From positions 28,750 to 92,749 of the forward strand of contig JARBTQ010000007.1 in NCBI GenBank assembly GCA_029240075.1: a DNA stretch of 64,000 nt. Reading direction: 5' to 3'. How positions within the stretch are numbered: the first letter of the stretch is position 1; every line of letters starts with the position of its first letter. This DNA comes from Chlamydiales bacterium. Its GTDB lineage: Bacteria > Chlamydiota > Chlamydiia > Chlamydiales > JARBTQ01. The position numbers were made by a program, and so were the translations under genes. The notes beneath the pieces were generated by a model. The model did no database searches, was not told the origin of the DNA, and saw only the letters and a program-made list of their open reading frames with translations. Of the stretch, positions 1 to 62,032 are shown piece by piece.

Positions 1-1517
1 AGCAGAGTAAATTTCTTATAAAAAATCGTATTGGATATACAACTCATTTAGTTAATTTTATTTGCCAATATATTAGAGCCTTAAAATGTGAACAAACTTG
101 CTTCAATAAAGTCCATAATTTGCTCTCTATGGGTCTTGGATTGGGATTATTAGGCTATCATGAGAAAAGAGCTCAGGAGGCTTTAGAACAAGTCTTATTG
201 CAGCTTGTAAATTCGCAGCAAGAATCTTTAATTTTGTATGCTATAGGCTTATTTACAGCCCAATTAGAGGAAGATAATCTCATTGTGAAAGATCCTCTAT
301 GGTGTGAATTGGTTGAAAAAGTGATTTATCAACTTGCACAGCTCGATTCTAAATTAGGTAACGAGCAGATTTTTAAATTTTTTAGTACTATTTTGAAGAT
401 TGAAAAGGACGAGCTTCATGTAAAGCTTTTAACTGCGGTAGCAGCTACACTAAGTAGCTTGCGCGCTTTTATTGTAAGAGAAGAGGATCGTGGGGCTAGT
501 ATTCAGCTTTTCAATTTATTAGAAAGTCGTAAAGAATGGCAGGTTGAAAAAATTATAAGAGCTAATTTCTATAAAGACATGATTAACAAGTACCTGCTAG
601 TGGCAAAAAAACTTGCTCCTAAATTTAGCTTGCAAGCTGCTCTGTTCCTAACAGGGGGATTAGCTAGAAATGCTTTGGATAAGACTTATGAAGGGATAGA
701 ACAGCTTTTTGTTAACACAATAAAATCTCTTAATAAGCCAGACCTTGCTGAGTGTATTGAAAAAGGCATAGAACTATTCAATCATTTTTGCCATCTAGGT
801 CTGCATATAACAGCTAGTCGAGAATGCAAATTAAGTTTATTAGATGCCATTGGCAATTTAAGGCTTTGTGTTGATGGCTTAGAAGAGGTAACTACCAATC
901 CCCATTTTCTGATTCAAATTAAACAATTTTGGCTCTCAACAACAAAGCTTTATAAAGAGATCTTAGATAATCATCTGCCACTTAGTGGGACAGTTAAAAA
1001 AGAGATGTTAGAGTTTTTTGCTTTTGCTTTAAGTGTTTCTATAGAAAAAATGCCAGACCTTCTCAATAAACATATTACAACCATTAAAGGAAACCAAAAC
1101 ACCCTTAGCGAAGTAGCAATACTGGCTGATTGTGAAATGCTCGATACTATTTTTGCATGTTTCAATGAATGTCAAAATAATATCTTTTCAGAGTTTCATA
1201 GCATACGATTAAAGTGTTACAAAACACTGTTTCTGGCGCTCACTCAATCTTGGTTAGACCAGGCGGAAGAGATCATTTCATATAACCAAATAATGAGCTA
1301 TGACTCGGTAAATCGCACATCTTCTATAGAAATACGGTCATTATCCTATGATTCCCAAGCTACACTTAGCTTATTAAAGCGCCGTATAAAAATTGGGGTT
1401 ATTGAGCACTACCTAACTCTTTTTCTAAAACTTATAGATCAAGAGAACTGGAATGAACCATCCCGCCAGGTACAAAAAGAAGCTTTTGAGTTTTATAGGA
1501 GCTGTTTAAAGTCTTAA
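1..1517 (+). CDS. C-terminal part of a very large protein (5' end lies outside the window); paralog of the 2096-aa protein at 54189..60479
   Basis: The reading frame is open from nt 3 up to the track ORF start at 120 with no stop, so the gene enters from the left edge. Its C-terminus aligns by eye with the C-terminus of the 54189..60479 product: RLKCYKTL/RLKCYKSL, QENWNE/QENWND, VQKEAFEFY/VQKEALEFY, LESRKEW..RANFY/LDKRQEW..RADLY. Confidence 0.75.
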   Translation, partial: QSKFLIKNRIGYTTHLVNFICQYIRALKCEQTCFNKVHNLLSMGLGLGLLGYHEKRAQEALEQVLLQLVNSQQESLILYAIGLFTAQLEEDNLIVKDPLWCELVEKVIYQLAQLDSKLGNEQIFKFFSTILKIEKDELHVKLLTAVAATLSSLRAFIVREEDRGASIQLFNLLESRKEWQVEKIIRANFYKDMINKYLLVAKKLAPKFSLQAALFLTGGLARNALDKTYEGIEQLFVNTIKSLNKPDLAECIEKGIELFNHFCHLGLHITASRECKLSLLDAIGNLRLCVDGLEEVTTNPHFLIQIKQFWLSTTKLYKEILDNHLPLSGTVKKEMLEFFAFALSVSIEKMPDLLNKHITTIKGNQNTLSEVAILADCEMLDTIFACFNECQNNIFSEFHSIRLKCYKTLFLALTQSWLDQAEEIISYNQIMSYDSVNRTSSIEIRSLSYDSQATLSLLKRRIKIGVIEHYLTLFLKLIDQENWNEPSRQVQKEAFEFYRSCLKS

Positions 1518-37782: not shown

Positions 37783-37798
37783 GAAGTAAGGAGAGTTC

Positions 37799-39886: not shown

Positions 39887-39924
39887 AATAGTAGTTCAGG
39901 GCCTGATACACAAAGGAAAAGAAG

Positions 39925-41466: not shown

Positions 41467-41498
41467 AGTAGACTAAACAGTAGTAAGGAGCTCAATGA

Positions 41499-41822: not shown

Positions 41823-41995
41823 TTACTGAGGCTTAGTGGACAAACAAAATTTATTCTTAAAATGAAATAAAGAATTGCACTCTATTGACAGATTCCTATA
41901 ATGCACAAATATAGGCAGCCCTAAAAGAGGGGGTTAGCACACTTCACTGAAATTTCAGACGGTGTACTAGCAGTACTAATCACAATAACCGATGA

Positions 41996-46007: not shown

Positions 46008-46330
46008 ACAATTGCCTTAGTTTTTTGTTTTTAACATTGCTCTGAGTCGATCTAATTTAAATCGCTCATACAAACAGAGGGTTAGCCTGTAAAAAATCGA
46101 ACTCTATTTGTTGTTAATATAAATTGGTAAATGCAATTTGCTTGCCTATTGAAATAGGACTTAATAGAAGTATTGAAAAAAGATTTTATTGGGACTCCTA
46201 TAAAATATCGCTGTGGCAAGCACTAAGGTACAAAAATGCTATGGACCTAGAGATTGGCATTGCTGCAATCTACTATCGATTTTTTTTAATAAATAGACAA
46301 TGGTTCCCATACTTTTAATGGAATAAACTC

Positions 46331-46437
46331 CATACAAAAAGCTTGATTGTATTGTATACAAAGTGCGGCTATGTTTGGTTTTTTTCAGTAGCAAGAAAAT
46401 GGTTAAGTTGCTCATATTCTGTATATATAATCCCATC
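46331..46437. repeat. second copy of the about 100-nt element at 24785..24890
   Basis: See 24785..24890. Minus-strand translations of the two copies are also similar (NLTIFLLLKKTKHSRTLYT versus YLTVFFYW*KKGKPSRALYS), which suggests a gene fragment. Confidence 0.5.
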
Positions 46438-46824
46438 TAAAAGATAGATGAGAACCTTTTATAATTAATTAGTTTAATTTGATTTTATATAATTATTATG
46501 TCAGAATCTTATTATTGTTTGCTTGATTGGTTATAGAATAAGCGGATAGAAGATTCAAATAGGTGTAAGCTTATCTTTAACAAAGATCAAAAATATTTAG
46601 CTTTTCCAGAAAATGGCAGGCTTAAGTTGGTCTTTTGGCCTATCTGAAATTGGTTTGATTTATTTAAGATCCCCACATACAATGGGTCTCGACATTTGTT
46701 GATTTTTCTTTTGCTTCTTCGATTTTAATTTGCTATATCGAATCTTAGTAAACAGACCCTAGTAATAGGGGTAATAGATGCGCATTCTTTTGTAGCTAAA
46801 AAACTTAAATTTTAGTTTGTAATT

Positions 46825-48909
46825 ATGACAAAACCTGGAACTTATTTACCTGTGCTCCAAGGCATTCAGAAGAATAAAGATTTTCATCGACTTGAAACAC
46901 TTTTTCAACCAGATGTGCTTCAACAAATGGCCGAAGATGAAAGATCTTTATTATCTTCTTTACTGCTCGATCAGATAACAGTTGTGGACAACTGTAATGA
47001 AGAGAGCATTGCGGAGATTTTAGAGAGAGCTTTTGCCATAATGCCAGATGCTTTCGATCTCGTTTATCGTCAAAGCCTCATCGGATTAGAGCAAGGAAAA
47101 AAAGCGAATCAAAATAACCTCTTATTGCTTGCTAGGCAACGGATTCAGCATGCCGTTAAGCTAGAGCCAACTAATATTCATGCATGGGCTACTTATGCCA
47201 AGATTTTGCTATGCCTGGTTTCCAGAACACAGCAACCTGAATACTTTGAGGAGGTCCAGGCAGCTTTAAGTGAAGCTAAGAAATTAGCTATTGGAAATGA
47301 GGATCTTTTAGTACTTGTTAAAAGTTTGCAAGCTACCTACTATTTCTATAGTGCACAAGTTTCAGAAGAACCCATCGATTATATTCAGGCGCTGGAAATC
47401 TATAACAGCATAGAAACTCAAATTGGTCCCGATGCTAATTTTTTGATAGATTATACTCGTTGTATCATGGCCTTATACAATTTAGTAGGTAGCATAGGTT
47501 ATCTACAAAAAGCGGCTGTTATCGGGAAAAAAATAGCTTATCACTATCCACAAGTTGCTAAATATTGGTATGAGATAGGTCTTATCTATCAGCAATATTA
47601 TCGAATGACAGAAGAACACCTTTATTTCCAAATTGCTGATGAATCGTTTAAAAAAGCGGAAGAATTGGGAGAAAATAGTCTAGAATTATGGCTTAATTGG
47701 GGAATACTGCACTTTGACTTAGCTCAGCAAAAGGAAACCATAGAAATTTTAGACTCTAGCGTTCGTAAATTATCGCTTGCAGCTCAGTTTAGTCCTCATG
47801 AACCACAAGTTATTGCAGCATATACGCAGGCAATCTCTTTAATGGGAACTTTATGCGATAGTTTGGAGTTTTTAAATCAAGCAAAGCTTAAGATTCAAAC
47901 AGCGGTAGAAGCATATCCTACAGATTCCTACATTAGTTATGCCTATGCAACTTGTTTGGCAGCTTGGGGAGAGTACTTTAGCGAAGATGAGTTTTATTTT
48001 GACGCTGTGGAAATATTAAAACAAGCATTAAATGTTCCTGTAAAAAACACACAAATACACTCTAAACTATGGTATCAGCTTGGGAATCTGTACTATGGAA
48101 TAGGGGATATGCTTAACGACTCCTACTATATAGAGCAGGCTATTATTAGCTATCAAAGGGCGGTTAGCCTAGAGCGTGACCGCGCCAAGATCTGGACTAA
48201 TTGGGGCGTTGCATTGGCAAAAATGGGCCAGTTAACCCTTGAAAAATGTTATTTCGAACTCGCTATAGAGCGTTTCCAGCATGTTATTTATACTCTTTGT
48301 GCAGGGGAAGAGAACGCAGATTTAGAAACACTTTATCAATATGGCTCTGTTCTTGATCTACTAGGGGATTTTGATCAGGATGAAGAGGACCATTATAATT
48401 TAGCTGTAGGTGTCTTAGAACGAGTCGTAGAGCAGGATCCAGAACATTTACAAGCACGTCATAGCCTAGCTTTAGCCCTTTTTCATAGAGGAGAAGTTAC
48501 AGCTGAAATTGTAGATTTTCAGGATGCTGCAGAGCATTTTCAAAAGTTAGCAGAATTAAATCCTGAGGATGATGTTCTATGGCATGACTGGGGGGTAACG
48601 CTGCTACATTTAGCTGCTTTTGTAGATGATACGTCCCATACTTTTAATTTTGAACAGGTTGTTATTGATGCTGAATCAAAGCTACTAGAAGCTGCTAAAT
48701 TAGGAAATATTTATGTGTTTTACCATTTAGCATGTTTATATGCTTTGAAGGAGCAATACGAAGACGCTATCAAATGGCTTACACATGCAGATCATTATGA
48801 AGCATTACCTTCAATTGATGAGCTTATGAGTGACGATTGGTTAGAAGATTTACGGGAAACAGATCTTTTTCGAAATTTTATAGCTCATCTAAAAATAAGT
48901 AATGAGTAA
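46825..48909 (+). CDS. large TPR-repeat protein
   Basis: 34-aa TPR-like units recur throughout (AWATYAKILL, YWYEIGLIYQQY, LWLNWGILHFDL, LWYQLGNLYYGIGD, IWTNWGVALAKMG, LWHDWGVTLLHL). Confidence 0.75.
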   Translation: MTKPGTYLPVLQGIQKNKDFHRLETLFQPDVLQQMAEDERSLLSSLLLDQITVVDNCNEESIAEILERAFAIMPDAFDLVYRQSLIGLEQGKKANQNNLLLLARQRIQHAVKLEPTNIHAWATYAKILLCLVSRTQQPEYFEEVQAALSEAKKLAIGNEDLLVLVKSLQATYYFYSAQVSEEPIDYIQALEIYNSIETQIGPDANFLIDYTRCIMALYNLVGSIGYLQKAAVIGKKIAYHYPQVAKYWYEIGLIYQQYYRMTEEHLYFQIADESFKKAEELGENSLELWLNWGILHFDLAQQKETIEILDSSVRKLSLAAQFSPHEPQVIAAYTQAISLMGTLCDSLEFLNQAKLKIQTAVEAYPTDSYISYAYATCLAAWGEYFSEDEFYFDAVEILKQALNVPVKNTQIHSKLWYQLGNLYYGIGDMLNDSYYIEQAIISYQRAVSLERDRAKIWTNWGVALAKMGQLTLEKCYFELAIERFQHVIYTLCAGEENADLETLYQYGSVLDLLGDFDQDEEDHYNLAVGVLERVVEQDPEHLQARHSLALALFHRGEVTAEIVDFQDAAEHFQKLAELNPEDDVLWHDWGVTLLHLAAFVDDTSHTFNFEQVVIDAESKLLEAAKLGNIYVFYHLACLYALKEQYEDAIKWLTHADHYEALPSIDELMSDDWLEDLRETDLFRNFIAHLKISNE

Positions 48910-48915
48910 ATAAAT

Positions 48916-48950
48916 GTATATGAGTTCTTTAGAGTAAAGAACTCATATAC
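48916..48950 (+). terminator. perfect 16-bp AT-rich hairpin right after the TPR gene
   Basis: GTATATGAGTTCTTTA-gag-TAAAGAACTCATATAC, beginning 7 nt after the stop. Confidence 0.6.
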
Positions 48951-49020
48951 CAGATGGGTTTGTTATCAGATCTTCTTCTATCAAGCAGCTTCTTCAAAAT
49001 CTTTACTTTTGGAAACTCAA

Positions 49021-49063
49021 TAGATCCCTGTAAAATAATTTGTGAAAGAAACCTATTGTCCCT
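49021..49063 (+). repeat. copy of the intergenic repeat family (TAGATCCCTGTAAAATAATTTGTGAAAGAAACCTATTGTCCC)
   Basis: It is collinear with 6141..6183 along its whole length, including the ACCTATT..CCC end. Confidence 0.6.
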
Positions 49064-49150
49064 ATTTGGTCGTTAATTTTATAGGCCTGTAATTTTTCAT
49101 CTAATACCTTTATTTGAAGTTTAGGGTGTTTTAGAAATATTGCACCTAGA

Positions 49151-49188
49151 TAGATCTCTAAAAACTACTTAAGGTAAATAGGTTTCCT
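49151..49188 (+). repeat. copy of the intergenic repeat family with an internal insertion (TAGATCTCTaaaaactacttaaggtAAATAGGTTTCC)
   Basis: It has both core blocks, TAGATCTCT and AAATAGGTTT. It lies 3' of the minus-strand F-box gene stop at 49211. Confidence 0.5.
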
Positions 49189-49210
49189 ACAATGAGCATA
49201 GATTGTTATT

Positions 49211-50668
49211 CTAAGGTTTAGTAAAGTCTTGCTTTGAAAAAAAAATGCCCCATGCGTTGTAAAAACCTTTATACCATTTGCTAATAGTGCTTTCGGTAGT
49301 AGCTTTGGGATGGGATTTATTATTCCATATTTCAATTCGTCCATTTGAAGTTGCTGCTGCAAGGCAAGCCTCATCTTCATCAGTATTGAAGCTAAGAGTC
49401 AGTTTAGCTACACCTTCTTTTGTATTGAAAGTGTGAAGAAGTGTTAAGTTTGTCAAATCCCAAACCTGAATTAACTTTTCACTACAGAAACTTGTGAAAA
49501 GATAGTTACATTCAGATGCCATCACGGTAGCTCGAATAATCTTTTTAGAAAGGCCACCTTGCAGATCTAAGATGCTAAGAGTATTGCTTGATAGAAGGCA
49601 AAGAGCATGATTGTTACGGACTACTAGATCTTTAATAAAAAAATCTGTAGTTAAGACATCATTTTCTTGTGGGATGCGATCTAGCTTATGTTCAATTTCT
49701 AAACTTTTTGCTCCAAGGATAAGGATTTTATGATTAATTGTAATAATGATTCTTTCGGTGTTAGAGGCAAGCTTCCAACTTGTTATCTTGTAATCGGATG
49801 ATACTGTTTTCGAACATAAGATATCCCCTGTCTGAGAATCATAACTTCTAACTATACTACTAACAGTTTTATCTTGATCAAAACTTAAAAAGCCTATGAT
49901 TAATTTGTGGTCTGAAAAGCTGATACCCATACATTTTAAATCGTAGCTCGATTCAGTAATATCAAAATTTTTTAGAGATAAACTACTTAGATTAATAACA
50001 GTGATTGTTTTTTGCTGCGCAGTGCTTACGGCAAATGTAGCTATAAGGTTTTTGGCATCATTAAGTGCATAAAAGTTTGCAGCAGATTGATGAGGAAATT
50101 CCTTAACAATACGATCAAATTCATATTCTTCTTTGGCATCCACTGTTAAAGGAATCGTATGAAAGCTCAATATATCTGAACTAGTATCAGTATAGCCTCT
50201 ATCTGTATCAAACTTTTCTCCTATAAGGAGATACTTATTAGTAAAGTGAAGAAATGGCGATTGATGAGTTCTATACTCATAAAATCTTTCTGTAGTATCT
50301 GCTATTGAATGTAGAGTAACGTTTGTTCTAGGACAATTGAATGTAGGGGAATTTGTATATCGGGTATAGACAATATGGGATTTTGAACAACTTAGATGCA
50401 TTATAGACGATTCCACTTCTTCAGTAAGTAATGAACCAGGTCTTAGGAGCCGAACAATGAGCCTAGTGGAACTAGATAGCATCTCTTTAACTATACAGTT
50501 CCATTGCTTACAGACGCAACTTGCATTAGCTTTATTGGGTAATGTTAATCTGTTAAATATATCTTTAATAATATCAGATGGTAAACAAACAACTGGTATT
50601 ATCTGCTGGTCAAATTTCAAAACTTGGTTTGTTTGTTCTGGATCAAATCGATTAGTAGGAAACGTCAT
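49211..50668 (-). CDS. F-box protein with a beta-propeller (WD40-like) C-terminal region
   Basis: The F-box is CLPSDIIKDIFNRLTLPNKANASCVCKQWNCIV. Later units are WD-like: SIVRSYDSQTGDIL, NTLSILDLQGG, KLIQVWDLTNLTLLHTF and SNGRIEIWNN. Confidence 0.65.
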   Translation of the reverse strand: MTFPTNRFDPEQTNQVLKFDQQIIPVVCLPSDIIKDIFNRLTLPNKANASCVCKQWNCIVKEMLSSSTRLIVRLLRPGSLLTEEVESSIMHLSCSKSHIVYTRYTNSPTFNCPRTNVTLHSIADTTERFYEYRTHQSPFLHFTNKYLLIGEKFDTDRGYTDTSSDILSFHTIPLTVDAKEEYEFDRIVKEFPHQSAANFYALNDAKNLIATFAVSTAQQKTITVINLSSLSLKNFDITESSYDLKCMGISFSDHKLIIGFLSFDQDKTVSSIVRSYDSQTGDILCSKTVSSDYKITSWKLASNTERIIITINHKILILGAKSLEIEHKLDRIPQENDVLTTDFFIKDLVVRNNHALCLLSSNTLSILDLQGGLSKKIIRATVMASECNYLFTSFCSEKLIQVWDLTNLTLLHTFNTKEGVAKLTLSFNTDEDEACLAAATSNGRIEIWNNKSHPKATTESTISKWYKGFYNAWGIFFSKQDFTKP

Positions 50669-50938
50669 TTCTCTTATAAAAATGGGAGGTTATAAATGGT
50701 TTCTATATTATTTTGTAGTATCTTACTACATTAGTAAAAAATATAACAGCCATTTACTAAAATGCTTTTTAGCGCTTATTTCATTAGGACAAAGCAGGTC
50801 GGATCGACATATGGGTGAAATTACATAGCATTTGCATTTTATTTGATTGTTTAATTTTTCTATTTATTAATATTAAATTAATAATTTTCATTTATTGAAT
50901 TGATTTGTTTTATTTAATTTCAACTCAATAGGTGATAG

Positions 50939-53773
50939 ATGCAAGCTTCATTTCATAATTTTCTAAATACGATTAATAAATTTGCAGGGGAACTCAGCCT
51001 TAAGGGGAACAAATTGACTTGCTTTAAAGACTCTAGTGAAAAAGCAGAAGAAAATTTAGAGAAAGTGCGAGCTGTAGTTACCTTTATCCAAGATAATGAA
51101 CGTTTTTTGAATGAAACTGATTGTAAATCCTTAAAGCAACTTAAAGAAACATTAAGTTGTAAAGTTGAGACCCCCGCTCACAAAGAACAAATTCAAGCGG
51201 TCTTTGATAAGTTTATAAAAATGGCTGAAAATACAAAGAAGGATGGGCCGGCCCCAACGAATTTAACATTTAAACCTTATGAATTAAGCATTTTGGTTGC
51301 TAAAGCTGCTTCTACACAAGAAGAAGTCTTAGCTAATTTAAGTTTAGTTGCAAAGTACTTCCCACGCTATCAGCTAGGAAATAATTTTGCTGTTTATGAT
51401 ACAAATAGTGGGGTTCTACCATCTGATACAGATATAAATATGGTGCGTTATGAATTGAAGTTTTTTCTGGAAAAGCTTAAGCAATCAAATCTGGAAGTTC
51501 TAGAAATTGCTCAGGTCGTTTATTCAGCAATTAAACCTTACACAGTTGTACCATTGGCTATACGGATTGCTGAAGAAGAGGGGAAGGAGAATCAAGCTGG
51601 CCTACTTCATTGCAAAGATGCTGTTACATACAAGTATCCACTACTTCTGTCTAAAACATTTTTGCATTGCTATGACGCAGATCAGCAAAAATTCGGGATA
51701 GAGTTGGCTGAAACATTTCAAGACTGTGACATTTACAACCCTCCGTATAACACTTTTATTGTCGTGTTTCCAAAGGGGAGTGACCCCCATAAACTTGGCC
51801 TTAATTTGGATCCCACTATGAAATGGGATAGAGCTCTGACCGAGATAAAGAAAGTAGCAGCAGGTAAAGTTGCGGAGTCATTAGTAGATTTATCTTTGCA
51901 GGATACAGAAGATCACGGATTCTATCGGCTTTTTGCTATCTCGGGGCATGGGTTACCCGGTAATATAGCCAACCTTCCACAAGAGGAAATAGAAAAAAAA
52001 ATATTCCCTGCCTTAGAAACGGTTCATACGAAGGGAACACATTGGAGTAGTTGTTTTGCAGGGGGAGCCAATTCGCTTGCATTTAAAAATAAAGCGGGGC
52101 AGGTTCCCTTCCCAGTATTCATTCAAGGAGCACAAGAAGAAGTTACGTTTGTTAGTAACCAAGCTTTTGTACTTTTAGAAGAGTTGAATAGAACCTTATT
52201 TGAAAGGCCTTTATCTGATTATTCAGATTATATTCCGCAGATTAAAGCTTTAAACAGAAAAGAGATCGCCAAATGGGATCTCGAAGCAGATGATAGTGAT
52301 GAACGTGATAAAATTTTGACATTTATCCCAGCAGTTAAACAAGAAGATCTAAAAAGGTATTATACCTCAATCCATGCTTCTAATATCTCTAGTATTGACC
52401 AGGAGATTAAAACGGCTAGAAATGATGAGATCCTCACACCTATCTTAACGGCTAAGCAAAAAGGGTTAAAAGAGCACTCTGCCCTAATTCTTACTTCTAA
52501 TATCTCTACTACTGAGCAGGGGATTGAAACAGCTAAAAATGATTTAGGGGCAGTAGGGGATGATACAGAACTTTGTATAAATATTACACAAGCAAACGAT
52601 TACTATTTTCTAGAAGACCCCATTGTAGAATATAAATTAATCTTCCAGCAAACATCCCCTTTTGCGTTCATTTCGCGAGGAAGTGCTTCTCATCATGTCA
52701 TCAGAGGTATGGAAGCTCCGAATCTTTCTATTGAAAAGCTTTGCGAAGCCACTCTTAATTCCCATAATGACAAAAGAGGTGGGTATCCTTCTAAAACATT
52801 TGTAATTGGGCTGCTGACTTGTCAGATTGAAGGAGATCTTGATACTGTAGTAAATGTTGTTCTACGGAAAAGTGGCCAGGAATGCTTTGTCTGTTATAAG
52901 AAGGGTGATCAATATTATGAAACCACTTATCTAGAAAAAAAGAAATTCCTTGATGAATTTCCTAAGAAAAAATTTAAGGAGTGGGTTCTAGAAAGGAAGA
53001 AAGTTATTTCAAAAGCTTTAGCAATAAGTAAAACTTACTATGCTTTGCTTGATTCTACTCCTTCTAAGGGGATGTTAGACCAGCTTAGCAAAGGAAAACA
53101 GACAGAAGAAGATTTTTATACAGCTATAAAAGACCTCTTTTGGGAAGGACAGGTTCCTATAGAAGCCACTCTAATTCATTATCTAGCGACTCATGGTTTA
53201 GGAAATGGGCAAAGCTCTTTCGATCCAAAAGAAATAGAAGATCTCATCAATAAGATGGATGTGAAAGAGAAGGCTACTGCATTTAGCACTCTTAGCGAAT
53301 TTATAAAATTATTAGATCGTTCAAAATATAATGTAGATAGAATTATAGCTAACTTTAATTCCTATCTCTATACTCCGCTTATGCAAGCCATCACAAATAA
53401 TAGAGTGGAAGAGATAGGGCAAATTTTAGAACTATCACCTCAAACCCTTAATCAATCGACTGTTTTTAAAACCACCTCTCTGGGAATTGCAATCAATACT
53501 GAACAAATAGAATTAGCTGAGTATTTATTGAAACAGGGAGCTCAATTGGAGCTTAAGGAAAGGATTAACATACCCAATTTCATAAGTATCATGTTCTATT
53601 ATATAGAACAGAAAGGGGAGTTTACTAAAGAAAACCGCAAGGCTTTTTTAGATAAGATCAAGCAAATGAGGGATGGTGAAAGTATTCTCGAATATAGAAG
53701 TATTGGTATTCGAAAAATTTCGAATAGTTTAAGGAGCTTACAAGATATAATTGAAAGGTTCCCGGATAAATAA
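50939..53773 (+). CDS. large hypothetical protein with a possible His/Cys (caspase-fold-like) dyad, an internal 39-aa repeat and C-terminal ankyrin repeats
   Basis: RLFAISGHGLPGN is followed 34 aa later by HWSSCFAGGAN. The unit SNISSIDQEIKTARND / SNISTTEQGIETAKND is repeated. C-terminal YTPLMQAITNNRVEEIGQILE and SLGIAINTEQIELAEYLLKQGAQLE are ankyrin-like. Confidence 0.6.
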   Translation: MQASFHNFLNTINKFAGELSLKGNKLTCFKDSSEKAEENLEKVRAVVTFIQDNERFLNETDCKSLKQLKETLSCKVETPAHKEQIQAVFDKFIKMAENTKKDGPAPTNLTFKPYELSILVAKAASTQEEVLANLSLVAKYFPRYQLGNNFAVYDTNSGVLPSDTDINMVRYELKFFLEKLKQSNLEVLEIAQVVYSAIKPYTVVPLAIRIAEEEGKENQAGLLHCKDAVTYKYPLLLSKTFLHCYDADQQKFGIELAETFQDCDIYNPPYNTFIVVFPKGSDPHKLGLNLDPTMKWDRALTEIKKVAAGKVAESLVDLSLQDTEDHGFYRLFAISGHGLPGNIANLPQEEIEKKIFPALETVHTKGTHWSSCFAGGANSLAFKNKAGQVPFPVFIQGAQEEVTFVSNQAFVLLEELNRTLFERPLSDYSDYIPQIKALNRKEIAKWDLEADDSDERDKILTFIPAVKQEDLKRYYTSIHASNISSIDQEIKTARNDEILTPILTAKQKGLKEHSALILTSNISTTEQGIETAKNDLGAVGDDTELCINITQANDYYFLEDPIVEYKLIFQQTSPFAFISRGSASHHVIRGMEAPNLSIEKLCEATLNSHNDKRGGYPSKTFVIGLLTCQIEGDLDTVVNVVLRKSGQECFVCYKKGDQYYETTYLEKKKFLDEFPKKKFKEWVLERKKVISKALAISKTYYALLDSTPSKGMLDQLSKGKQTEEDFYTAIKDLFWEGQVPIEATLIHYLATHGLGNGQSSFDPKEIEDLINKMDVKEKATAFSTLSEFIKLLDRSKYNVDRIIANFNSYLYTPLMQAITNNRVEEIGQILELSPQTLNQSTVFKTTSLGIAINTEQIELAEYLLKQGAQLELKERINIPNFISIMFYYIEQKGEFTKENRKAFLDKIKQMRDGESILEYRSIGIRKISNSLRSLQDIIERFPDK
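52376..52543 (+). repeat. two about 51-nt direct repeats 117 nt apart inside the 944-aa CDS
   Basis: gcttctaatatctctagtattgaccaggagattaaaacggctagaaatgat (52376-52426) compares with acttctaatatctctactactgagcaggggattgaaacagctaaaaatgat (52493-52543). Confidence 0.8.
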
Positions 53774-53905
53774 AAGAGTTACCTTTTGTTTCCTTTCAGT
53801 GCCCTGTCCCCCTCCGTAAAGAGGTGCTTTATGTTAGTTAAACTATCTTTAGCTCTGCTATAAGGGCTAATCGGCCTTTAATTAGTTGCCTAATAACAAC
53901 AAATA

Positions 53906-53949
53906 GATGATTCTACCTTTTTTTATGAGTAGAAAAAAGTAGAATCATC
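53906..53949. other. long hairpin in the 415-nt intergenic region
   Basis: GATGATTCTAC (53906-53916) pairs with GTAGAATCATC (53939-53949), a perfect 11 bp. The stem can extend through T6/A6 if one C is bulged. Confidence 0.5.
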
Positions 53950-54188
53950 AGAGCTTTGTATATGCGACAAGGCTAATATCGATTTATTCTAAGCCTTTTA
54001 ATTTTAAAAATGTACTTTTCCTTTTTTAGAAATGAAAAATTATGATAATTTAATCATATTCTGTTTAATCTATTTAAATCGCTATTAGATGTCATTCCTT
54101 TTGTAGCCTCTATATAAATTCTTGATTTTATAAAGATGGCGTTACGATTTTATTTAAATTTACTTATTTTACCTAACATAACTTAGTC

Positions 54189-57100
54189 GTGAAGCCTTTA
54201 TCTTTTTTACCAACTCCGTTATCTGCAGGGAATAGTTATAATCAGCTCCATATAGATACTGCTGAAATATTTACACAGGTATCTAGCTGCTTTAGCTATA
54301 ATCCCACCACAACTGAAGCTCAACTTACAGAGCTCGGAAAGCAAAGATTCCTACAAGTTCTGTCTAGTACTATCCATATTGCTCCCAATCCGTTCAAAAA
54401 AGCTTACACTGATCCAGAATTTGCTAACTATTCTTTTGAAATAACCTGCAGCAATTTAGTGGAGTGTGTTTTAAATTGTTTTCTAGAGCAGATAGCAGAG
54501 GTAAGATTAGGAGGTAGCGCGGTTAGATACGTGCTAGATGATGAAGACAATGGTCCAAGTTTTAATGATATAGATATTTCGATTTATCTAAAGCCATCTG
54601 CGTGTCAGCAAAAATTAGACCTGTATAAATGCTTATCAGCTCTAATTAGAAAGCTTGATCCTGATCATTGGATAAAAAAAACAGATAGAAAGGACATGGG
54701 GGAGCTTTATATTCAAAAATTTCTCCAATGCCCTGATTGGACATTAGTCAGTGTAGGGGTGACAAATGAAAAGGGTAAAGGGATTGATTTCAAATTTATA
54801 TTTGGAGATATGCGAGAGTATATATTTGATTTCGATTCTCAATATCTTATTTTAAATCCTGTAATATTACATATAATAAACAGCGTGACTACAGATAAAA
54901 CTTCTATGCTTACCGAGATAGCTGTTCCAGTCGGAGCTTATAATGGTGATGTAATAGGCAGCTTTAAAGATTTTAAAAATAAAATATTTCGAACAAGTAG
55001 CCCAGAAAAGGTGCAGCGGGGAGGATGGGTAAGAGCCAATTATTTGAGCTCGCTCAAAGGATACACAAGCCATGAATTTAAATTAAAAAGCTTTCAGCCA
55101 CAATTTTGGAGAAATAACGAACTAGCGATCGCACTGTTGAATCATAATGAGAAAGGTCAAACTGATCATTATGTAGCAGCGGTTTTTAGCTATGTTCGAA
55201 AAAATTTGATGGATACTCTTACGACACATCGAATAGGATATTCAACGGACGATCAAGGGGCTTATCTATTTCAATGCTGGTGGATGATGAAACCTTTGTC
55301 AACAGATGAGTTAAAGCAAATCTTGCCAAGAGAGCATAATTTTTTCAAAAGTCAAGAGGAATGGACCTCCCTAGCTACTAGAGCACAACAAGTCGTATCC
55401 ACTGTTCAATCAAGTTTAGCTAAGCTTATTACTGATAATAGCTATTCCAATACTTTGCTCGAAAGCATTAAAAATAGTTTATTAGTCGTACCAGTACCCT
55501 TGCTTAAATCATATTTAAAGGTTTGTACAGAGCTACTTTCTTTTGCGCCTGCAACATCTATGGTTTTTCATAATGGTAAACTTCACCTCAGAATAAACCA
55601 TAGGGCTGTTCAATCAGATAAGATACAAACCTTGTTATTTCCCTATTTTTCAAAAAGTATCTTGGAAACATTTATAGCTCTTACTACTCAGCATAGTGAT
55701 GAAAGGATAATTTGGGAGCAATTAAATACTATTTATTCGGTCATTTTATCGTACCAAGAGGTTGAAACATATACCGTAAAGAATTTTATTCAAATAGATG
55801 AACAACAACTTCAATCGATTTGTAAAATGCCTTGGCATTATTCTTATCATCTTGCATGCTGGCTTGCTTTACGATCAGACTCTTTAGAGAATAATCAGAA
55901 TTTAAAAGCTTTTGTGACTGTTATTTTCCCCGAGGCTCTTCATGCCTGTTTTAGTCCAGGACAAAAAGCGCTATTAAAGAAAATATTCAATGAACGAGTC
56001 TTGCTACCGCAAGAATTACAATATGCTTTAAAGTTTTCTGTAAGCAGCGAAGAGCAAGCAATTGAAATGAATGTTCAACATATACTAACAACGTACATTT
56101 CTTCCAACTCTGCATTATCCTATGATGTAGTTATCTTTTATTACCATTATGCTGATTACGTTGACTCATATCATAAAAATTCTCTAAGGTCCTGTTTAAG
56201 AGCTTTTCTGTGTGCACAATTTCCAAGGCTTTTGTATGCATGCCAATCTAATCATGAAAGAGGGGTCTTAATAGCAGCTTATTCAAAGTGCTCAAAAATT
56301 GATAAGGGTATGCTAACCAGCAGTTTGCAGATAAATGCAAATAACAAATCAAGCATAGTTGAGATAGCTCATAAAGCTCTTACCCTTTATTTAAACAACG
56401 ACACTAATCAAATCATTACAACAGACTTTTTAGAGAGTTTTATCGAATATTCTCAAAGGTATTTTGATCATGACGGAAAAATTTACCTAGAGTGGCAGAC
56501 AACTTGTCTAGAGTTTTTTATAAATCAAAAGAACTGGTTAAGTGCTTTAAAAAATCTAGAAAGCTTTTCTTTTAGTCGACTTGATATGCTACATAACAGT
56601 GTTAAGCTTGTAGATTTGCTGGTAAAACTTTACCTTAATAAGGCAAAGGAACTCTCTGCATATGTCTTGAATGATTGCCAACTCAAAATATTTGAAGATG
56701 TAGCGCTATTTCTACTTAGTGATAGAGAGCCTATTGACCCTCAAATGAAAAGCTACCTGCTTCAGACACAACAGAAAAATGAGATAAACAAGCTCTATGT
56801 AGATAGTGAGACAGGTGTAGCTCTAAATCAATCAGCTGTGGGCCATGCAGAAAAGATCTATTTATATGGAATTGCTAGAGCATTAATTAGCTCAGCGATT
56901 GATTATCAGCAGATCAATAAGGCTTTTCAATTCTTAGTAGCTTTGGATTTTAAAAAGGTAATTACAAATTTAGGCAATAGAAGAAGCTCTCTATACTTGA
57001 TGATAGCGGAGAAATTACTTAAAACAGGAGAGTGTTTCCCTTTAGCGCTGTTAAGCATAATAAAAGCTTCCAAGTCTATGACTATCAGTGAAGCTGCTGC

Positions 57101-60100
57101 TCAATGTAATCTATTTAAAGAGCTAGCTAGATTGCCAAAGCAAAAGAAAATATTAGATGATGTCGGAATACAAATTTGTAATGCAGTAGATGATAGCTTA
57201 AATCTGCATGATATATTGAATGTATTAATAGAGCATGAAAATTACGATAAAGATTTGGAGACCGACAGTATAAGTATAAATTTAGTAGAATTAGCTGAAG
57301 AGCATAAACTATGGAGCTGCTATTATGAAAAATTTGCCAGCTATATTAAGATATTAGTTAAAGAAAGGTCTCTAGAACCATTTCAAAAAACTAGTAATTT
57401 GCAGTCTAGCTTGCAAATTACAGGCCCATCGATTTCAGCCAATGAAACTATTTTATGCTTAAAGTTTGTGCTAAAACAGATCAACGAGTTGAAAAAATAT
57501 AAGAAAGAATGGAGGAGAGATCTCTATTCCAGACTATTTACGCTCGTAATACCTATAAAATGGTCAAATGATAAAGCTTGCCTGCCCTCTAAAATACAAC
57601 TAGCTCAATTTATTGGTTCAAAAGGGTGTAGAGTATTTGATTTCGAGCAAAGTATTGCAATTGTAGAGAGTGGAGAAACTAGTGGTTATTTTTTTGGTAT
57701 TGAGACAAATTTAGCAGATCTTTACACTGTAATTCTAAATAAGATTTTATTAGATCTTTTTATGCAAAAAACCTCTTTGCAAGAGGGATTACAACGTATA
57801 CAACTTATAGTAACTAAAATTTGCGATAAAGGGTGGACTAATTACTTTACACCTGGGGCTCTATCATCAATAGTGGTTAGGTCGAGTCAAATATTGCTAA
57901 ATGCAAACTTGTATCAACAAGCGTATGAATTTATGACTCAAATAGCTGCTTGGAATATCTGGCATGATCGAATAGAAGAGTATCAGCATCTAGTCAAAGA
58001 GTTAGTATATGGAGTTGAAAGTAGCCCTAATGATACATTTTTATTAGGTAAAATAGTCCAAAATCTGTCCTTGCCTATTAGCTCTGAAGATAGAATAGAA
58101 TATACCGCATCTTGGTTAAGAAAGTGTTGTGAAATCAATAAAGTAGATGAAGCATTTGAAATTTTCTCTAATTTCTACAAAGTCTTATTAGCACAGAATG
58201 ATCCTGTCTTAGATAAAGCGGAGATCGTTCCTAAATTAAGGGACTGTATCCATCATAGATCTGGAAAGGCTACCGATCAAGAGTTAGAGATTTCGGAAAT
58301 CGTTAAAAGCAGATGGAAAACCATAACAAACTATTTTAATTGGAATCGAACATTTGATCCTAATCATCTTGATTTTGAACAAGAAATTATTTGTCCATTT
58401 ATCATTTCTTGCTTAGAGCGTTCAGAAACTATTTTCAGTAAATTTGCGTGGAATTATCTTAAAGAATATTTGACTTTTACAGATGTCAATAATGATTTGA
58501 GATCTTTTTGGCAGGATTATATTGCTGAAGTTGTCACTACAGCTATTATAAAAAAACGTACAGAACTTCTAAAAAATATTTATGATGAAGTTTTCGAAGC
58601 AAAGAAAACTTCTAGCTTCATAAATCGCTGGTTTTCTAAAATCTCTTATTTTCTCTTGGTAAGATATACTCTGGATAATTACATAAATTTTACAGTTAAA
58701 CATGTTGGGAAAAAGAATAGCTGGGAAAAACCTTTAAAGAATGTGATTCATTATTTATTAACTTGCGACTCTACTGTAGATGTGCAACAGCATTTACCTT
58801 GGCTTCATGAAAATTTGCCTACCTATTTTCGACAAATTTATTTTAAAGTCATGGATTTACTTATTTCTACAAAAAAAATTGAGGATTTAAATCTAGCCTT
58901 CCAACTATGGTTTCAGCGTAGCGATGTGTTGTTAAGCGATTCTGAATCTTATATCAAAATTTTAGATAGAATGATTTATCATCATATTACTTGGCTTAAC
59001 TCGAATAGATCAAAAACGTCCATCGTAAATGAAATAAAGGTTCTTTTTGCTAAGGCAATCGAGCTTCACTTATTTATAGGAGAGGAGACTTATCGCAGAG
59101 ATTGTTTGGCAAATATCTTAGGCTACCTTATAGATACTCAAGAGACTACTTTAATACAGCAAGTAAGTCAGTTCTTAATCGAATATAATCAAAACAATCC
59201 ATTGCTTCTAAATGATGAGCATTGGTGTGACTCGCAAAATTTTTTACTTCTATCAATGGCCCAAAAACGGGAAATATCTAGCTATATCGAGATATTCAGA
59301 TTTTTTAGTGAACAAGTTAAGCGTGCAGATATTAAATTTCCTGAGAGATTTTTACACGTCATGTGCAGCATATTAGCTAATGCCCCAATTTTTTATGGAA
59401 ATTACCATATAAAGGCATGCCTTCGTATTATTTGTAGCGATTTAGATAAACGGCAAGAATGGCTTGAGCATGCAGAGATGCGAGCAGATTTGTATATAGC
59501 ACTTATCAAAAGATCAGTTGAAGAAGCTATCCATTTTGACGCTGTGCAGATTATGCATGCTGCTTCATTAATGGAAGAATCTATAGAAAAGGGGATTATA
59601 GAACATTGTAGCGATGAAGATTTGGGTAAGTCATTTACAGAAGTCCTTAGAAATTTAATTGGTTATAATTTGGAGACTTCACTTTTGAAAGCTGTTTCTT
59701 TATTTAACCTGATTCTTACAAAAAAAAATCATCTAAGACTGAACCCTTTTTATAAAGTTCTACTATTATCCTTAGCAGATAGTTTACATGCTTTTGTAAC
59801 TACAAGGGATCGGCCTGATACCAATTTTGTACAATTACAACTGTTTAGAAGATTCAGACTTGCATATATCGAAGTGTACTTATCATTCTTTGGCACACAA
59901 GAGCTAAATAATCATAATTTTGAGGAGCAATTTTTGACAGGTCTCCAATTTAATATAGTTAGTAGTATTAGACGATTACCCGATATTGTAAGGGAGGGGC
60001 TTGAACCATTGCTTTCTGAAGATTTTATTGTTTGGAATGAGACTAAGACTAAGAATGACCTTCGAATACTCTGGGCAGATGATAAATTACTAGATCAGAT

Positions 60101-60479
60101 TTTAAAATCTTTGAAAGATTATCAGACTACTAATTTCAGCGCTTTTCCAGCGTTACGACTTAAGTGTTATAAAAGTTTATATAAGCTGCTTACAAATAAA
60201 TCAGTTAAAGCAGCTAAGTGTTTAGTACCTTGCACTGAGATCATCCAAGTAATAGATATACCCACTGTGATATCTGAAAAAGCGATTATAAGAAGTCCTA
60301 CCATTTTTATAAGTGACCTTAGCTTTCTTAGTGAAGGTAAGGGCATTGATCTCGTTAAGATGAGCCTTACAAAAGTACACCAACTTGTAGCTCAAGAAAA
60401 CTGGAACGACCAAGCTCTGAATGTGCAAAAGGAAGCGTTAGAATTTTATGAGGAGTGCACCAAGGTATTGAATAGCTAA
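54189..60479 (+). CDS. giant (2096 aa) hypothetical protein with an N-terminal nucleotidyltransferase-fold signature
   Basis: Uninterrupted 6.3-kb ORF with a GTG start. Residues around 100-135 read EVRLGGSAVRYVLDDEDNGPSFNDIDISIYL (G[GS]...DxD, resembling the GGxVRD...DxD head of CCA-adding/poly(A) polymerases). A later GIDFKFIFGD is a possible third carboxylate. The remainder is helical-repeat-like. The C-terminus is paralogous to 1..1517. Confidence 0.7.
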   Translation: MKPLSFLPTPLSAGNSYNQLHIDTAEIFTQVSSCFSYNPTTTEAQLTELGKQRFLQVLSSTIHIAPNPFKKAYTDPEFANYSFEITCSNLVECVLNCFLEQIAEVRLGGSAVRYVLDDEDNGPSFNDIDISIYLKPSACQQKLDLYKCLSALIRKLDPDHWIKKTDRKDMGELYIQKFLQCPDWTLVSVGVTNEKGKGIDFKFIFGDMREYIFDFDSQYLILNPVILHIINSVTTDKTSMLTEIAVPVGAYNGDVIGSFKDFKNKIFRTSSPEKVQRGGWVRANYLSSLKGYTSHEFKLKSFQPQFWRNNELAIALLNHNEKGQTDHYVAAVFSYVRKNLMDTLTTHRIGYSTDDQGAYLFQCWWMMKPLSTDELKQILPREHNFFKSQEEWTSLATRAQQVVSTVQSSLAKLITDNSYSNTLLESIKNSLLVVPVPLLKSYLKVCTELLSFAPATSMVFHNGKLHLRINHRAVQSDKIQTLLFPYFSKSILETFIALTTQHSDERIIWEQLNTIYSVILSYQEVETYTVKNFIQIDEQQLQSICKMPWHYSYHLACWLALRSDSLENNQNLKAFVTVIFPEALHACFSPGQKALLKKIFNERVLLPQELQYALKFSVSSEEQAIEMNVQHILTTYISSNSALSYDVVIFYYHYADYVDSYHKNSLRSCLRAFLCAQFPRLLYACQSNHERGVLIAAYSKCSKIDKGMLTSSLQINANNKSSIVEIAHKALTLYLNNDTNQIITTDFLESFIEYSQRYFDHDGKIYLEWQTTCLEFFINQKNWLSALKNLESFSFSRLDMLHNSVKLVDLLVKLYLNKAKELSAYVLNDCQLKIFEDVALFLLSDREPIDPQMKSYLLQTQQKNEINKLYVDSETGVALNQSAVGHAEKIYLYGIARALISSAIDYQQINKAFQFLVALDFKKVITNLGNRRSSLYLMIAEKLLKTGECFPLALLSIIKASKSMTISEAAAQCNLFKELARLPKQKKILDDVGIQICNAVDDSLNLHDILNVLIEHENYDKDLETDSISINLVELAEEHKLWSCYYEKFASYIKILVKERSLEPFQKTSNLQSSLQITGPSISANETILCLKFVLKQINELKKYKKEWRRDLYSRLFTLVIPIKWSNDKACLPSKIQLAQFIGSKGCRVFDFEQSIAIVESGETSGYFFGIETNLADLYTVILNKILLDLFMQKTSLQEGLQRIQLIVTKICDKGWTNYFTPGALSSIVVRSSQILLNANLYQQAYEFMTQIAAWNIWHDRIEEYQHLVKELVYGVESSPNDTFLLGKIVQNLSLPISSEDRIEYTASWLRKCCEINKVDEAFEIFSNFYKVLLAQNDPVLDKAEIVPKLRDCIHHRSGKATDQELEISEIVKSRWKTITNYFNWNRTFDPNHLDFEQEIICPFIISCLERSETIFSKFAWNYLKEYLTFTDVNNDLRSFWQDYIAEVVTTAIIKKRTELLKNIYDEVFEAKKTSSFINRWFSKISYFLLVRYTLDNYINFTVKHVGKKNSWEKPLKNVIHYLLTCDSTVDVQQHLPWLHENLPTYFRQIYFKVMDLLISTKKIEDLNLAFQLWFQRSDVLLSDSESYIKILDRMIYHHITWLNSNRSKTSIVNEIKVLFAKAIELHLFIGEETYRRDCLANILGYLIDTQETTLIQQVSQFLIEYNQNNPLLLNDEHWCDSQNFLLLSMAQKREISSYIEIFRFFSEQVKRADIKFPERFLHVMCSILANAPIFYGNYHIKACLRIICSDLDKRQEWLEHAEMRADLYIALIKRSVEEAIHFDAVQIMHAASLMEESIEKGIIEHCSDEDLGKSFTEVLRNLIGYNLETSLLKAVSLFNLILTKKNHLRLNPFYKVLLLSLADSLHAFVTTRDRPDTNFVQLQLFRRFRLAYIEVYLSFFGTQELNNHNFEEQFLTGLQFNIVSSIRRLPDIVREGLEPLLSEDFIVWNETKTKNDLRILWADDKLLDQILKSLKDYQTTNFSAFPALRLKCYKSLYKLLTNKSVKAAKCLVPCTEIIQVIDIPTVISEKAIIRSPTIFISDLSFLSEGKGIDLVKMSLTKVHQLVAQENWNDQALNVQKEALEFYEECTKVLNS

Positions 60480-60535
60480 GTTACAGAGTTGCCTGCTAGA
60501 GACCTATAGAAAGTCAAATTTTCATAAAAAAACAA

Positions 60536-62032
60536 TCACTCTTCTTCAGTACTGGGAAGTTGTGGCCCTAAAGCTTTTGCTAGAGAGACCAAGTTTATCC
60601 ATATCTCAGTCTGGCTCTGTACTAACGATAAATGGGAATTAAGAAAATTATTTTGAGCTTCAAGCACATTTAAAAAAGGCAATATACCTTGACTATAAAG
60701 CTCCTTTGCCAATTTCAAAGATCGGTTGTTTGCATCAACCGCTTTTTCAAGTGAGCTGACTTTAGTTTTAGTATAAGAGTAGTTAGTTAATCGATTCTCG
60801 ACTTCTTCTAGAGCTTTGTAAATGACCTGTTCATAGCGTACAAGAGCGGCTTCTTGTCTAATTTTATGTACATTTACTTTTATTCTAACTCTTCCAAAGT
60901 CAAGTAAAGACCAGTTGACAGAGGGACCAAAGCTCCAAAAGGAGCTATTAGATTGTAAAATTTGATCATGATGAGAGCCTAATTGACCAATTGACCCTAT
61001 GAGACTAAAATGTGGAAAAAAATCAGCTATAGCAGCTTGAGTGCGTGCTGTGGCTGCGGCAAGTTCATATTCAGCCTTGCGAATATCAGGACGTCGCCGT
61101 AAAACCTCTGAGGGAGTATCTATTGGGATAACCCATTCAGGTGTTAACCACCAAGACTGTATCGTTTCTTTGTTCTTATTGCAGTGTAATTGTTCCGTGA
61201 CTTGTTTAGGATTTTCCTTTAACAAGGTTGCTATACGGTAAATACAGGAGTCATAGAGCTTTTGTAAAGCTGGTAATTGGGCGTATGTCATAGCTAGCTG
61301 AGCTTCCGATTGTAAAACGTCAAGCTCACTTATTAACCCAGAGCGAAGCTTTGCTTTAGCTAAAATTAGAGTTTCTTCCTGTACTTCAGAATGTTGCTTA
61401 TGAATACTTATTTGCTGTTGCAAACTGCGCATAGTAATATAAGAATTTATTAATTCAGCTAATAGAGTAGCTCGTAGATCTTGCTGACTTGCTAAAGCTC
61501 CATAAATTTCTTTGAGTGAAGCTTGCTTTGCGTTTCCTATGGCTCCAAAAAGGTCTAATTCCCACTGAGCATCAAATCCTATTTGAAAAAGATGGTTTTT
61601 ACGCGAACTTCCGGAGGTGAAAGCTGGCGGTAAATTAATCCTAACAGGACTATTTAAACTTTGTTGTTGTTTAGCCGCTTGCCCCCTTGTTTGTAGATGG
61701 GGATAAAGCTCTTTTTCAGCGATGTTGTACGTAGTACGTAGTTCAAGTATATGTAAAGCAGCTAATTTAAGGTCTAAATTATAAGTTTGAAATTTCTGTA
61801 TCCAAGCCTCAAGTAAAGGGTCTTGCAAAAGTTTGCCCCATCCATTTAAGTCTGTAACCAATTTATGTGAAAATGAAGTTGATTTTGGCCTTTCGTAGAA
61901 GCTTGTCCAATCTGTGGCAATAGGTATGTTAGGTTTTTGATAATCTAATTTAGAAACACATCCTGAAACGAATGTAGTAAATAGGAAATGGATTGAAAGA
62001 TAGGTATAACTTAGTCTATTTGAAAATTCCAT
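60536..62032 (-). CDS. NodT/OprM-family outer membrane efflux lipoprotein
   Basis: Lipobox FVSGC after a hydrophobic leader. Two TolC-like repeat halves with coiled segments; RRRPDIRKAEYELAAA is typical of the family. Confidence 0.85.
   Translation of the reverse strand: MEFSNRLSYTYLSIHFLFTTFVSGCVSKLDYQKPNIPIATDWTSFYERPKSTSFSHKLVTDLNGWGKLLQDPLLEAWIQKFQTYNLDLKLAALHILELRTTYNIAEKELYPHLQTRGQAAKQQQSLNSPVRINLPPAFTSGSSRKNHLFQIGFDAQWELDLFGAIGNAKQASLKEIYGALASQQDLRATLLAELINSYITMRSLQQQISIHKQHSEVQEETLILAKAKLRSGLISELDVLQSEAQLAMTYAQLPALQKLYDSCIYRIATLLKENPKQVTEQLHCNKNKETIQSWWLTPEWVIPIDTPSEVLRRRPDIRKAEYELAAATARTQAAIADFFPHFSLIGSIGQLGSHHDQILQSNSSFWSFGPSVNWSLLDFGRVRIKVNVHKIRQEAALVRYEQVIYKALEEVENRLTNYSYTKTKVSSLEKAVDANNRSLKLAKELYSQGILPFLNVLEAQNNFLNSHLSLVQSQTEIWINLVSLAKALGPQLPSTEEE

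Follow-up and report, generated by a model that had tools for sequence, protein, structure and literature searches.

A FAM46/TENT5-type nucleotidyltransferase domain at the head of a giant orphan protein from a Chlamydiales bacterium

Results

In this work, we analyzed a stretch of 64,000 nucleotides from a Chlamydiales bacterium (assembly GCA_029240075.1, contig JARBTQ010000007.1, positions 28,750 to 92,749 of the forward strand; hereafter the window) and concentrated on one gene that encodes a protein of 2096 amino acids, referred to below as the giant protein. An initial annotation, made from the sequence and its open reading frames, had proposed that this protein carries a polymerase-beta-type (Pol-beta-type) nucleotidyltransferase head followed by some 1800 residues of helical repeats, and had labeled it a candidate effector or toxin. 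The features of the gene and of its surroundings are collected in Table 1. The start codon is GTG at position 54189, no other ATG, GTG or TTG being present within the first 90 codons, and NCBI nr holds the identical protein with M1 instead of V1. The string from which the nucleotidyltransferase signature had been read, EQIAEVRLGGSAVRYVLDDEDNGPSFNDIDISIYL, was confirmed at residues 100-134, and residues 198-207 read GIDFKFIFGD.

When the first 300-400 residues were scanned alone, residues 83-294 matched PF07984 (NTP_transf_7), the FAM46/TENT5 family of non-canonical poly(A) polymerases, with 70-71 bits (70.4 for query residues 1-400 and 71 for residues 1-300; E 1e-19 to 2e-19). The curated gathering cutoff of this profile is 27 bits and it was the sole Pfam family matched. 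A full-length hmmscan of all 2096 residues did not report PF07984, and the Pfam field of the precomputed annotation shows no domain. As the domain is visible in the short scan but missed at full length, similar fusions may hide in very long proteins. A search of PDB sequences with the head returned TENT5C, TENT5B and TENT5A only, with E values from 3.3e-13 (TENT5C, 6w36) to 6e-11 and 20-28% identity to the TENT5 catalytic domain. Hence we conclude with very little doubt that residues ~45-295 are a Pol-beta nucleotidyltransferase domain of the FAM46/TENT5 type. The evidence from sequence comparison for this assignment stands independent of the structural model described below.

The core interpretation of the initial annotation was thus correct, and it can be refined with regard to the family, as the head had been likened to CCA-adding enzymes and poly(A) polymerases and to AMPylators. 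No match to a PolyA_pol head with its neck and body domains or to class II CCA-adding enzymes or poly(A) polymerase I was obtained in Pfam or PDB, even at E <= 10, and the GlnE/DrrA-type AMPylator families gave no Pfam, PDB-sequence or Foldseek match to the head. An identity as class II CCA-adding enzyme or poly(A) polymerase I was rejected on the lack of a profile match and on the absence of these enzymes from the significant fold matches. An AMPylator of the GlnE/DrrA type was likewise rejected because profile and fold matches were missing and because of the distance between the glycine and the first aspartate, which is 17 residues here (G109-x17-D127) and 16 in TENT5C, as compared with 11 in Legionella DrrA (G-x11-D-x-D).

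The catalytic set of FAM46C consists of G73, S74, D90, D92 and E166, and alanine at any of these five positions abolishes activity (PMC8286142). In the alignment with TENT5C (chain offset 11), RLGGSA of the giant protein pairs with RLNGSA, NDIDISI with KDLDLIF and GIDFKFI with NVELKFV. The proposal that the GIDFKFIFGD string supplies the third carboxylate was borne out, since D200 aligns with E166 of TENT5C; the glutamate of NVELKFV is the residue changed to glutamine in the mutant chain 6w3i. We then aligned the giant protein and its paralog P0002 (see below) with 28 vertebrate TENT5A, TENT5B and TENT5C proteins. Invariant in these 30 sequences were G109, S110, D127, D129, Y174, K177, W184, K202, F203, S217, P272, E273, G278 and G279. 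At the third acidic position, both bacterial paralogs have aspartate and all 28 TENT5 proteins have glutamate. On the N-terminal side the alignment reaches back to L46 and L58 in the N-terminal helix, so that the head also has elements specific to FAM46 beyond the generic core.

The initial annotation had named beforehand two findings that would count against it, namely fold recognition without a nucleotidyltransferase fold and loss of the G-S and D-x-D positions in paralogs. Neither was obtained. An AlphaFold2 model of residues 1-480 had a mean predicted local distance difference test score (pLDDT) of 54, with ~65-85 in the core (residues 45-250). In this model a strand (102-108) leads into G109-S110 and a helix (109-116), followed by a strand with the DxD (128-134) and a later strand with D200 (198-204). 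This is the pattern of the Pol-beta superfamily, i.e. strand, hG[GS] and helix, [DE]h[DE]h on the next strand and a third carboxylate on a later one. Foldseek against PDB placed FAM46A, FAM46B and FAM46C structures at all of ranks 1 to 10 (E 2.7e-12 to 2.2e-9, probability 1.00), and the template modeling (TM) score between the head model and the chain 8eqb_B, which comprises the catalytic domain only, was 0.68. Other nucleotidyltransferases (Cid1, TUT4, CutA, CD-NTases, Pol beta) followed only at E >= 0.026, a gap of about seven orders of magnitude. The fold match is partly circular because the alignment underlying the model is dominated by TENT5 sequences. In BFVD the head model matched, weakly, uncharacterized proteins from giant viruses that infect amoebae (Yasminevirus, Satyrvirus and Pandoravirus, with E values of 3e-4 to 2e-3 and TM ~0.2).

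The helical domain of TENT5 enzymes was not detected. The PF07984 match covers the profile only up to position 241 of 321, and an hhalign comparison of the TENT5 helical domain (27 TENT5 proteins) with residues 272-446 of both paralogs gave a probability of 0.2% beyond the common PE..RGG motif. In the region where TENT5 proteins have a five-helix domain, the model contains low-confidence helices, and the Foldseek alignments run across it. The TENT5 helical domain appears to be either replaced or diverged beyond recognition. Since it is undetectable, substrate binding may differ from that of TENT5 enzymes.

For the C-terminal ~1,700 residues, nothing significant was found in Pfam, NCBIfam, PHROGs or PDB. 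An AlphaFold model of residues 400-1200, built on a two-sequence alignment, was nearly all helix (~40 helices of 10-20 residues, mean pLDDT 51). With this model Foldseek returned generic alpha-solenoids such as exportins, karyopherins, mTOR and Ctr9 at E > 1e-3 and TM < 0.25, from which nothing seems interpretable past "helical". Self-BLAST of the 2096-residue protein detected no internal sequence repeats. The description of the remainder in the initial annotation as helical and free of recognizable motifs thus stands, and its "repeats" do not. We regard the ~1,800-residue body as a lineage-specific orphan that is predicted, at low confidence, to be alpha-helical. Two ideas about this part of the protein were discarded, a Cys-His catalytic reading of the HLACWLA and YHY blocks, as both lie in mid-helix in the model, and a C-terminal E-block of the Dot/Icm type, as the genome is chlamydial.

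A HMMER scan of residues 331-1530 against 1.84 billion representative proteins recovered, apart from the query itself, a single protein, P0002 (2012 amino acids, E 2.6e-81). Its gene resides on the same 93,924-bp JGI contig, ~52 kb upstream of the giant gene; the final ~465 codons of the P0002 gene correspond to an open reading frame at positions 120..1517 of the window. P0002 is colinear with the giant protein from end to end at 25% identity and passes the PF07984 cutoff on its own with 36.7 bits. This sole paralog retains the G-S, D-x-D and third acidic positions (LVGSA, DVDIE, SMDMKF) as well as PEKVIRGGW and the C-terminal QENWN..VQKEAxEFY tail. Identity between the two proteins peaks in the head (31-35%), in residues 401-700 (28-35%) and in the last ~100 residues (32%), and is 15-25% elsewhere. 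Both genes seem to stand alone and not to be part of operons. About 3 kb upstream of the P0002 gene (positions 6597-6929 of locus L003), a 110-residue protein with an RRM_1 domain, a eukaryote-type RNA-recognition motif, is encoded.

Further searches for relatives were negative. In an indexed homolog search the full protein returned only itself and residues 1-400 returned nothing; tblastn gave no match to the head on plasmids. Pattern scans with the paralog or nucleotidyltransferase alignment found no relatives in GTDB genomes, JGI metagenome contigs or IMG/VR; these are weak negatives because the scans rest on two short peptide patterns and did not recover the source contig itself. No other bacterial carrier of the head was found, no exhaustive search with the head alone having been made; the best 120 matches listed by an indexed search were all vertebrate.

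The reality of the fusion was verified with an independent assembly. A Logan contig from a soil metagenome (40,199 bp, depth 36.5) showed zero differences over positions 53000-61500, which indicates that the junction of head and tail is not an assembly artifact. A related strain in a second soil run diverged by ~1% in the giant gene vs 5.5% in the upstream spacer. Among the 18 coding differences listed for this strain, 12 are synonymous and 6 non-synonymous, which argues for purifying selection on the giant gene. The G+C content is 33.8% for the giant gene, 36.3% for the head and 35.4% for the window; signs of a recent import are absent.

The first 41 residues of the giant protein have pLDDT values below 50 in the AlphaFold model, and the N-terminus is acid-poor, with K2 as the sole charged residue among the first 22. 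Hydrophobic segments of the transmembrane type were absent from all 2096 residues. Promoter and terminator scans around the gene gave results no better than shuffled sequences. Between strains, the 415-bp spacer that separates the ankyrin gene from the giant gene shows about five times the divergence of the coding sequence. This spacer contains an AT-rich, near-perfect hairpin (gattctac...gtagaatc, ~53918-53958), which may be a terminator and was not called by the consensus scan.

With regard to the source organism, the methionyl-tRNA synthetase encoded in the window is 60-67% identical to those of Parachlamydiaceae, Simkania, Waddlia, Rhabdochlamydia and other chlamydial metagenome-assembled genomes, and ~44% identical to those of Bacteroidota. 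This indicates a chlamydia from the environment that has no close sequenced relative in the collection compared. The giant gene belongs to an uncultured, Parachlamydiales-type chlamydia from soil. The four genes that precede the giant gene (44262-53773, Table 1) look like a small effector-gene neighborhood; a eukaryote-like repertoire of F-box, ankyrin, WD40 and TPR proteins is described for amoeba-associated Chlamydiae (PMC4209131).

Several other groups of genes were noted in the window. At 36673-42799, consecutive genes encode an FlhB/SctU-family protein, FlhA, an FlhF-like GTPase and a factor resembling sigma-28. FlhA reaches 875 bits on the flagellar model, above the cutoff, and stays below the cutoff of the SctV model; the set may be a true flagellar export gate or a chlamydial "flagellar-like" orphan set. 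Genes for an HlyD/EmrA-type adaptor and an EmrB-type MFS pump are found at 33773-36465, and a gene for a TolC-like outer-membrane channel (60536-62032) converges on the 3' end of the giant gene. Two tandem paralogous pairs are present, one at 15371-17203 and 17271-18998 (40% identity over ~100 N-terminal residues, no Pfam or NCBIfam match) and one at 32288-32899 and 32921-33541 (37% identity).

Table 1. Features of the giant gene, its paralog and the neighboring genes (positions in the window)
Feature	Positions	Strand	Remarks
Whole giant gene	54189..60479	+	One unbroken open reading frame, 2096 amino acids; stop codon 60477-60479 (open reading frame listing)
N-terminal residues 1-44	54189..54320	+	Rich in Ser/Thr/Pro/Asn/Leu and predicted to lack structure; may be a type III secretion signal
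FAM46/TENT5-type nucleotidyltransferase catalytic domain (NCD), residues ~45-295	54321..55073	+	Pfam, PDB, alignment, model
G109-S110, hG[GS] motif at strand-to-helix turn	54513..54518	+	Equivalent to FAM46C G73-S74; invariant in 30 sequences
D127-I128-D129, predicted metal-binding DxD on beta strand	54567..54575	+	Equivalent to FAM46C D90/D92; invariant in 30 sequences
D200, third carboxylate in GIDFKFI	54786..54788	+	Equivalent to FAM46C E166; strand 198-204 in model
PEKVQRGGW, residues 272-280	55002..55028	+	Matches FAM46 motif PEEIRGGGL; P, E, G and G invariant
Residues 296-400, position of TENT5 helical domain	55074..55388	+	Helical, low pLDDT, 21% identity between paralogs
Residues 401-800, best-conserved orphan part	55389..56588	+	25-35% identity to paralog; predicted all-helical; blocks HNGK, PWxYSxHLACWLA, QFPRLL
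Residues 801-2000, divergent orphan part	56589..60188	+	15-27% identity to paralog; 801-1200 predicted helical
Residues 2001-2096, conserved C-terminal tail	60189..60476	+	32% identity to paralog; ends QENWN..VQKEAxEFY..C.K
3' end of paralogous gene P0002 (2012 amino acids)	1..1517	+	Gene start on the same contig, ~4.5 kb ahead of the window; locus L003 10001-16039
F-box gene	44262-46007		Upstream of giant gene; domain scan
TPR gene	46825-48909		Upstream of giant gene; domain scan
F-box + WD40 gene	49211-50668		Upstream of giant gene; domain scan
Ankyrin gene (944 amino acids)	50939-53773		Directly upstream of giant gene; domain scan

Discussion

Given our findings that the head of the giant protein belongs to the FAM46/TENT5 family and that it is joined to an orphan helical body, we propose that the protein may be a translocated, host-directed RNA-tailing effector, a model to which, taken as a whole, we assign a probability of about 0.45. 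Translocation into the eukaryotic host cell, probably via the chlamydial type III system through the unstructured N-terminus, is suggested by the disordered, acid-poor N-terminus itself, by the chlamydial nature of the genome, by the otherwise eukaryote-only distribution of the family, by the effector-like neighbors and by the rapid, lineage-specific divergence. Inside the host, two metal ions coordinated by D127, D129 and D200 would allow the head to add nucleotides, most likely AMP, to the 3' ends of host RNA, as TENT5 enzymes do. The giant helical body could stand in for the undetected TENT5 helical domain as a platform for RNA binding, targeting or localization, and the presence of the highly diverged P0002 points to two specificities. 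An ancient transfer from a eukaryotic host is the probable origin of the head. FAM46 proteins are reported from all sequenced Amoebozoa, and the G+C content of the gene now matches that of the genome. From the conservation of its residues, we expect that the head is probably catalytically active. The "effector" label of the initial annotation is plausible from context; for "toxin" we found no supporting evidence.

Several points weigh against this proposal. The window yielded no identifiable type III secretion genes, and the FlhB and FlhA present there score as flagellar type. The TENT5 helical domain, which makes up half of the active-site cleft, is not detectable in the giant protein, and the third carboxylate is by alignment an aspartate and not a glutamate. 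The head model is of moderate confidence and its fold match, as stated above, is partly circular. Finally, only one lineage is known to have the protein.

The lack of a detectable TENT5 helical domain, which helps to bind RNA, together with a catalytic core that is generic to the Pol-beta superfamily, also fits a host-directed nucleotidyltransferase with an acceptor other than RNA, i.e. an enzyme that AMPylates or nucleotidylates a host protein or a small molecule in the manner of Legionella DrrA/SidM. The helical body could then be a protein-binding platform, for which the fold searches offer weak solenoid-type matches only. We consider this improbable because the only significant sequence and structure matches are RNA-tailing FAM46 enzymes, because FAM46-specific elements are kept (the N-terminal helix with L46 and L58, Y174, K177, W184 and PEKVxRGG) and because families of the GlnE/DrrA type remained unmatched. 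Just as improbable in our judgment is an endogenous, unsecreted enzyme that tails the RNAs of the chlamydia or otherwise serves its own RNA metabolism. In fold and behavior, FAM46 enzymes do come close to the class II poly(A) polymerases of bacteria (PMC7049688), which would suit such a role. However, a tail region without a homolog outside this genome among 1.84 billion representatives is unlike a housekeeping protein, as is an identity of 25% between two paralogs; in addition, the family is otherwise confined to eukaryotes (PMC4857005) and the gene adjoins F-box, ankyrin and WD40 genes.

The undetected helical domain and the exchange of the third carboxylate could also point to a pseudo-enzyme, in which an inactive head serves as a binding module, e.g. 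as a mimic that titrates partners of host TENT5, and the protein as a whole is a scaffold. TENT5 proteins do have non-catalytic partners (Plk4, BCCIP) in solved complexes. This possibility appears more distant still, as both paralogs have kept each of the five catalytic positions despite a very deep divergence, which is unexpected without selection for catalysis, and as the exchange of aspartate for glutamate is conservative for metal binding. The metagenomic origin of the sequence and the precomputed annotation devoid of any domain raise the question of an artifact, either a piece of eukaryotic FAM46 attached to bacterial DNA or an open reading frame without function. This is effectively excluded by the identical sequence from two assemblers, the uniform G+C content of gene and contig, the paralog of the same architecture on the same contig and the signature of purifying selection against the second strain.

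A comparison with known systems places the proposed host-directed RNA-tailing effector closest to the TENT5A-D proteins. Its head has in common with them the G-S pair, the DxD, a third carboxylate, Y174, K177, W184, K202, S217, the PE..GG motif and the N-terminal helix. In contrast to them, it occurs in a bacterium and is part of a protein of 2096 instead of ~390 residues, with ~1,800 residues of orphan helical sequence appended, and it has an aspartate in place of the glutamate and no detectable helical domain. The alignments thus point to a head that is a member of the FAM46/TENT5 catalytic-domain family in a protein that, as a whole, is not a TENT5. The Legionella protein DrrA/SidM is a secreted effector in which a G...DxD nucleotidyltransferase head is joined to other domains; the giant protein differs from it in the lack of any detectable sequence or fold match, in the G-to-D spacing and in having nearest relatives that tail RNA. 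Class II bacterial poly(A) polymerase I and CCA-adding enzymes share the Pol-beta nucleotidyltransferase core, and the GGxVR-like string of the head recalls their motif A; for FAM46B, a topology similar to that of class II bacterial poly(A) polymerases has been reported (PMC7049688). Unlike FAM46 structures, these enzymes yield no profile match and are not among the significant fold matches.

By analogy, the closest functional precedent for an effector that acts on host poly(A) tails would be Legionella PieF (Lpg1972), a small translocated inhibitor of the CCR4-NOT deadenylase (PMC11774319, PMC12255788). It may be a functional analog as a bacterial protein that alters poly(A)-tail metabolism of host mRNA, but it is not homologous to the giant protein and adds no tails. 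The eukaryote-like proteins of amoeba-associated Chlamydiae (PMC4209131) offer a parallel in that the giant gene shares their neighborhood and likewise brings a eukaryotic domain into an obligate intracellular bacterium. Those F-box, ankyrin, WD40 and TPR adaptors belong to large families, whereas here an enzyme domain is present in two copies in one known lineage. FAM46 proteins have been described from Metazoa, choanoflagellates, Giardia and "all sequenced Amoebozoa" (PMC4857005), and have elsewhere been called "metazoan-specific" (PMC7049688). No paper linking FAM46/TENT5 to Chlamydiae or Legionella was found in our search of the literature.

The most far-reaching version of our proposal would make the giant protein the first bacterial TENT5/FAM46 member, a translocated chlamydial effector that adds or lengthens 3' tails of host RNA, with the two paralogs directed at different sets of RNA; from the sequence, we regard this as possible and, in its entirety, doubtful. 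A variant, in which the patchy eukaryotic spread of the "prokaryotic-like" FAM46 proteins reflects transfer from such intracellular bacteria into early eukaryotes, we consider quite unlikely. TENT5/FAM46 enzymes are tumor suppressors in myeloma. In animals they stabilize mRNAs, notably those for secreted and innate-immune proteins (PMC9668313). With this head, a known family of enzymes appears in a domain of life and in an architecture that are both new for it. An intact copy of the TENT5 catalytic domain that an obligate intracellular bacterium carries joined to a giant orphan scaffold would add a new example of an enzyme captured from a host. If the proposal holds, a symbiont or pathogen would write poly(A) tails of its host, which goes beyond blocking their removal as PieF does, and reprogramming of host gene expression by tailing would be a strategy that has not been described for any bacterium.

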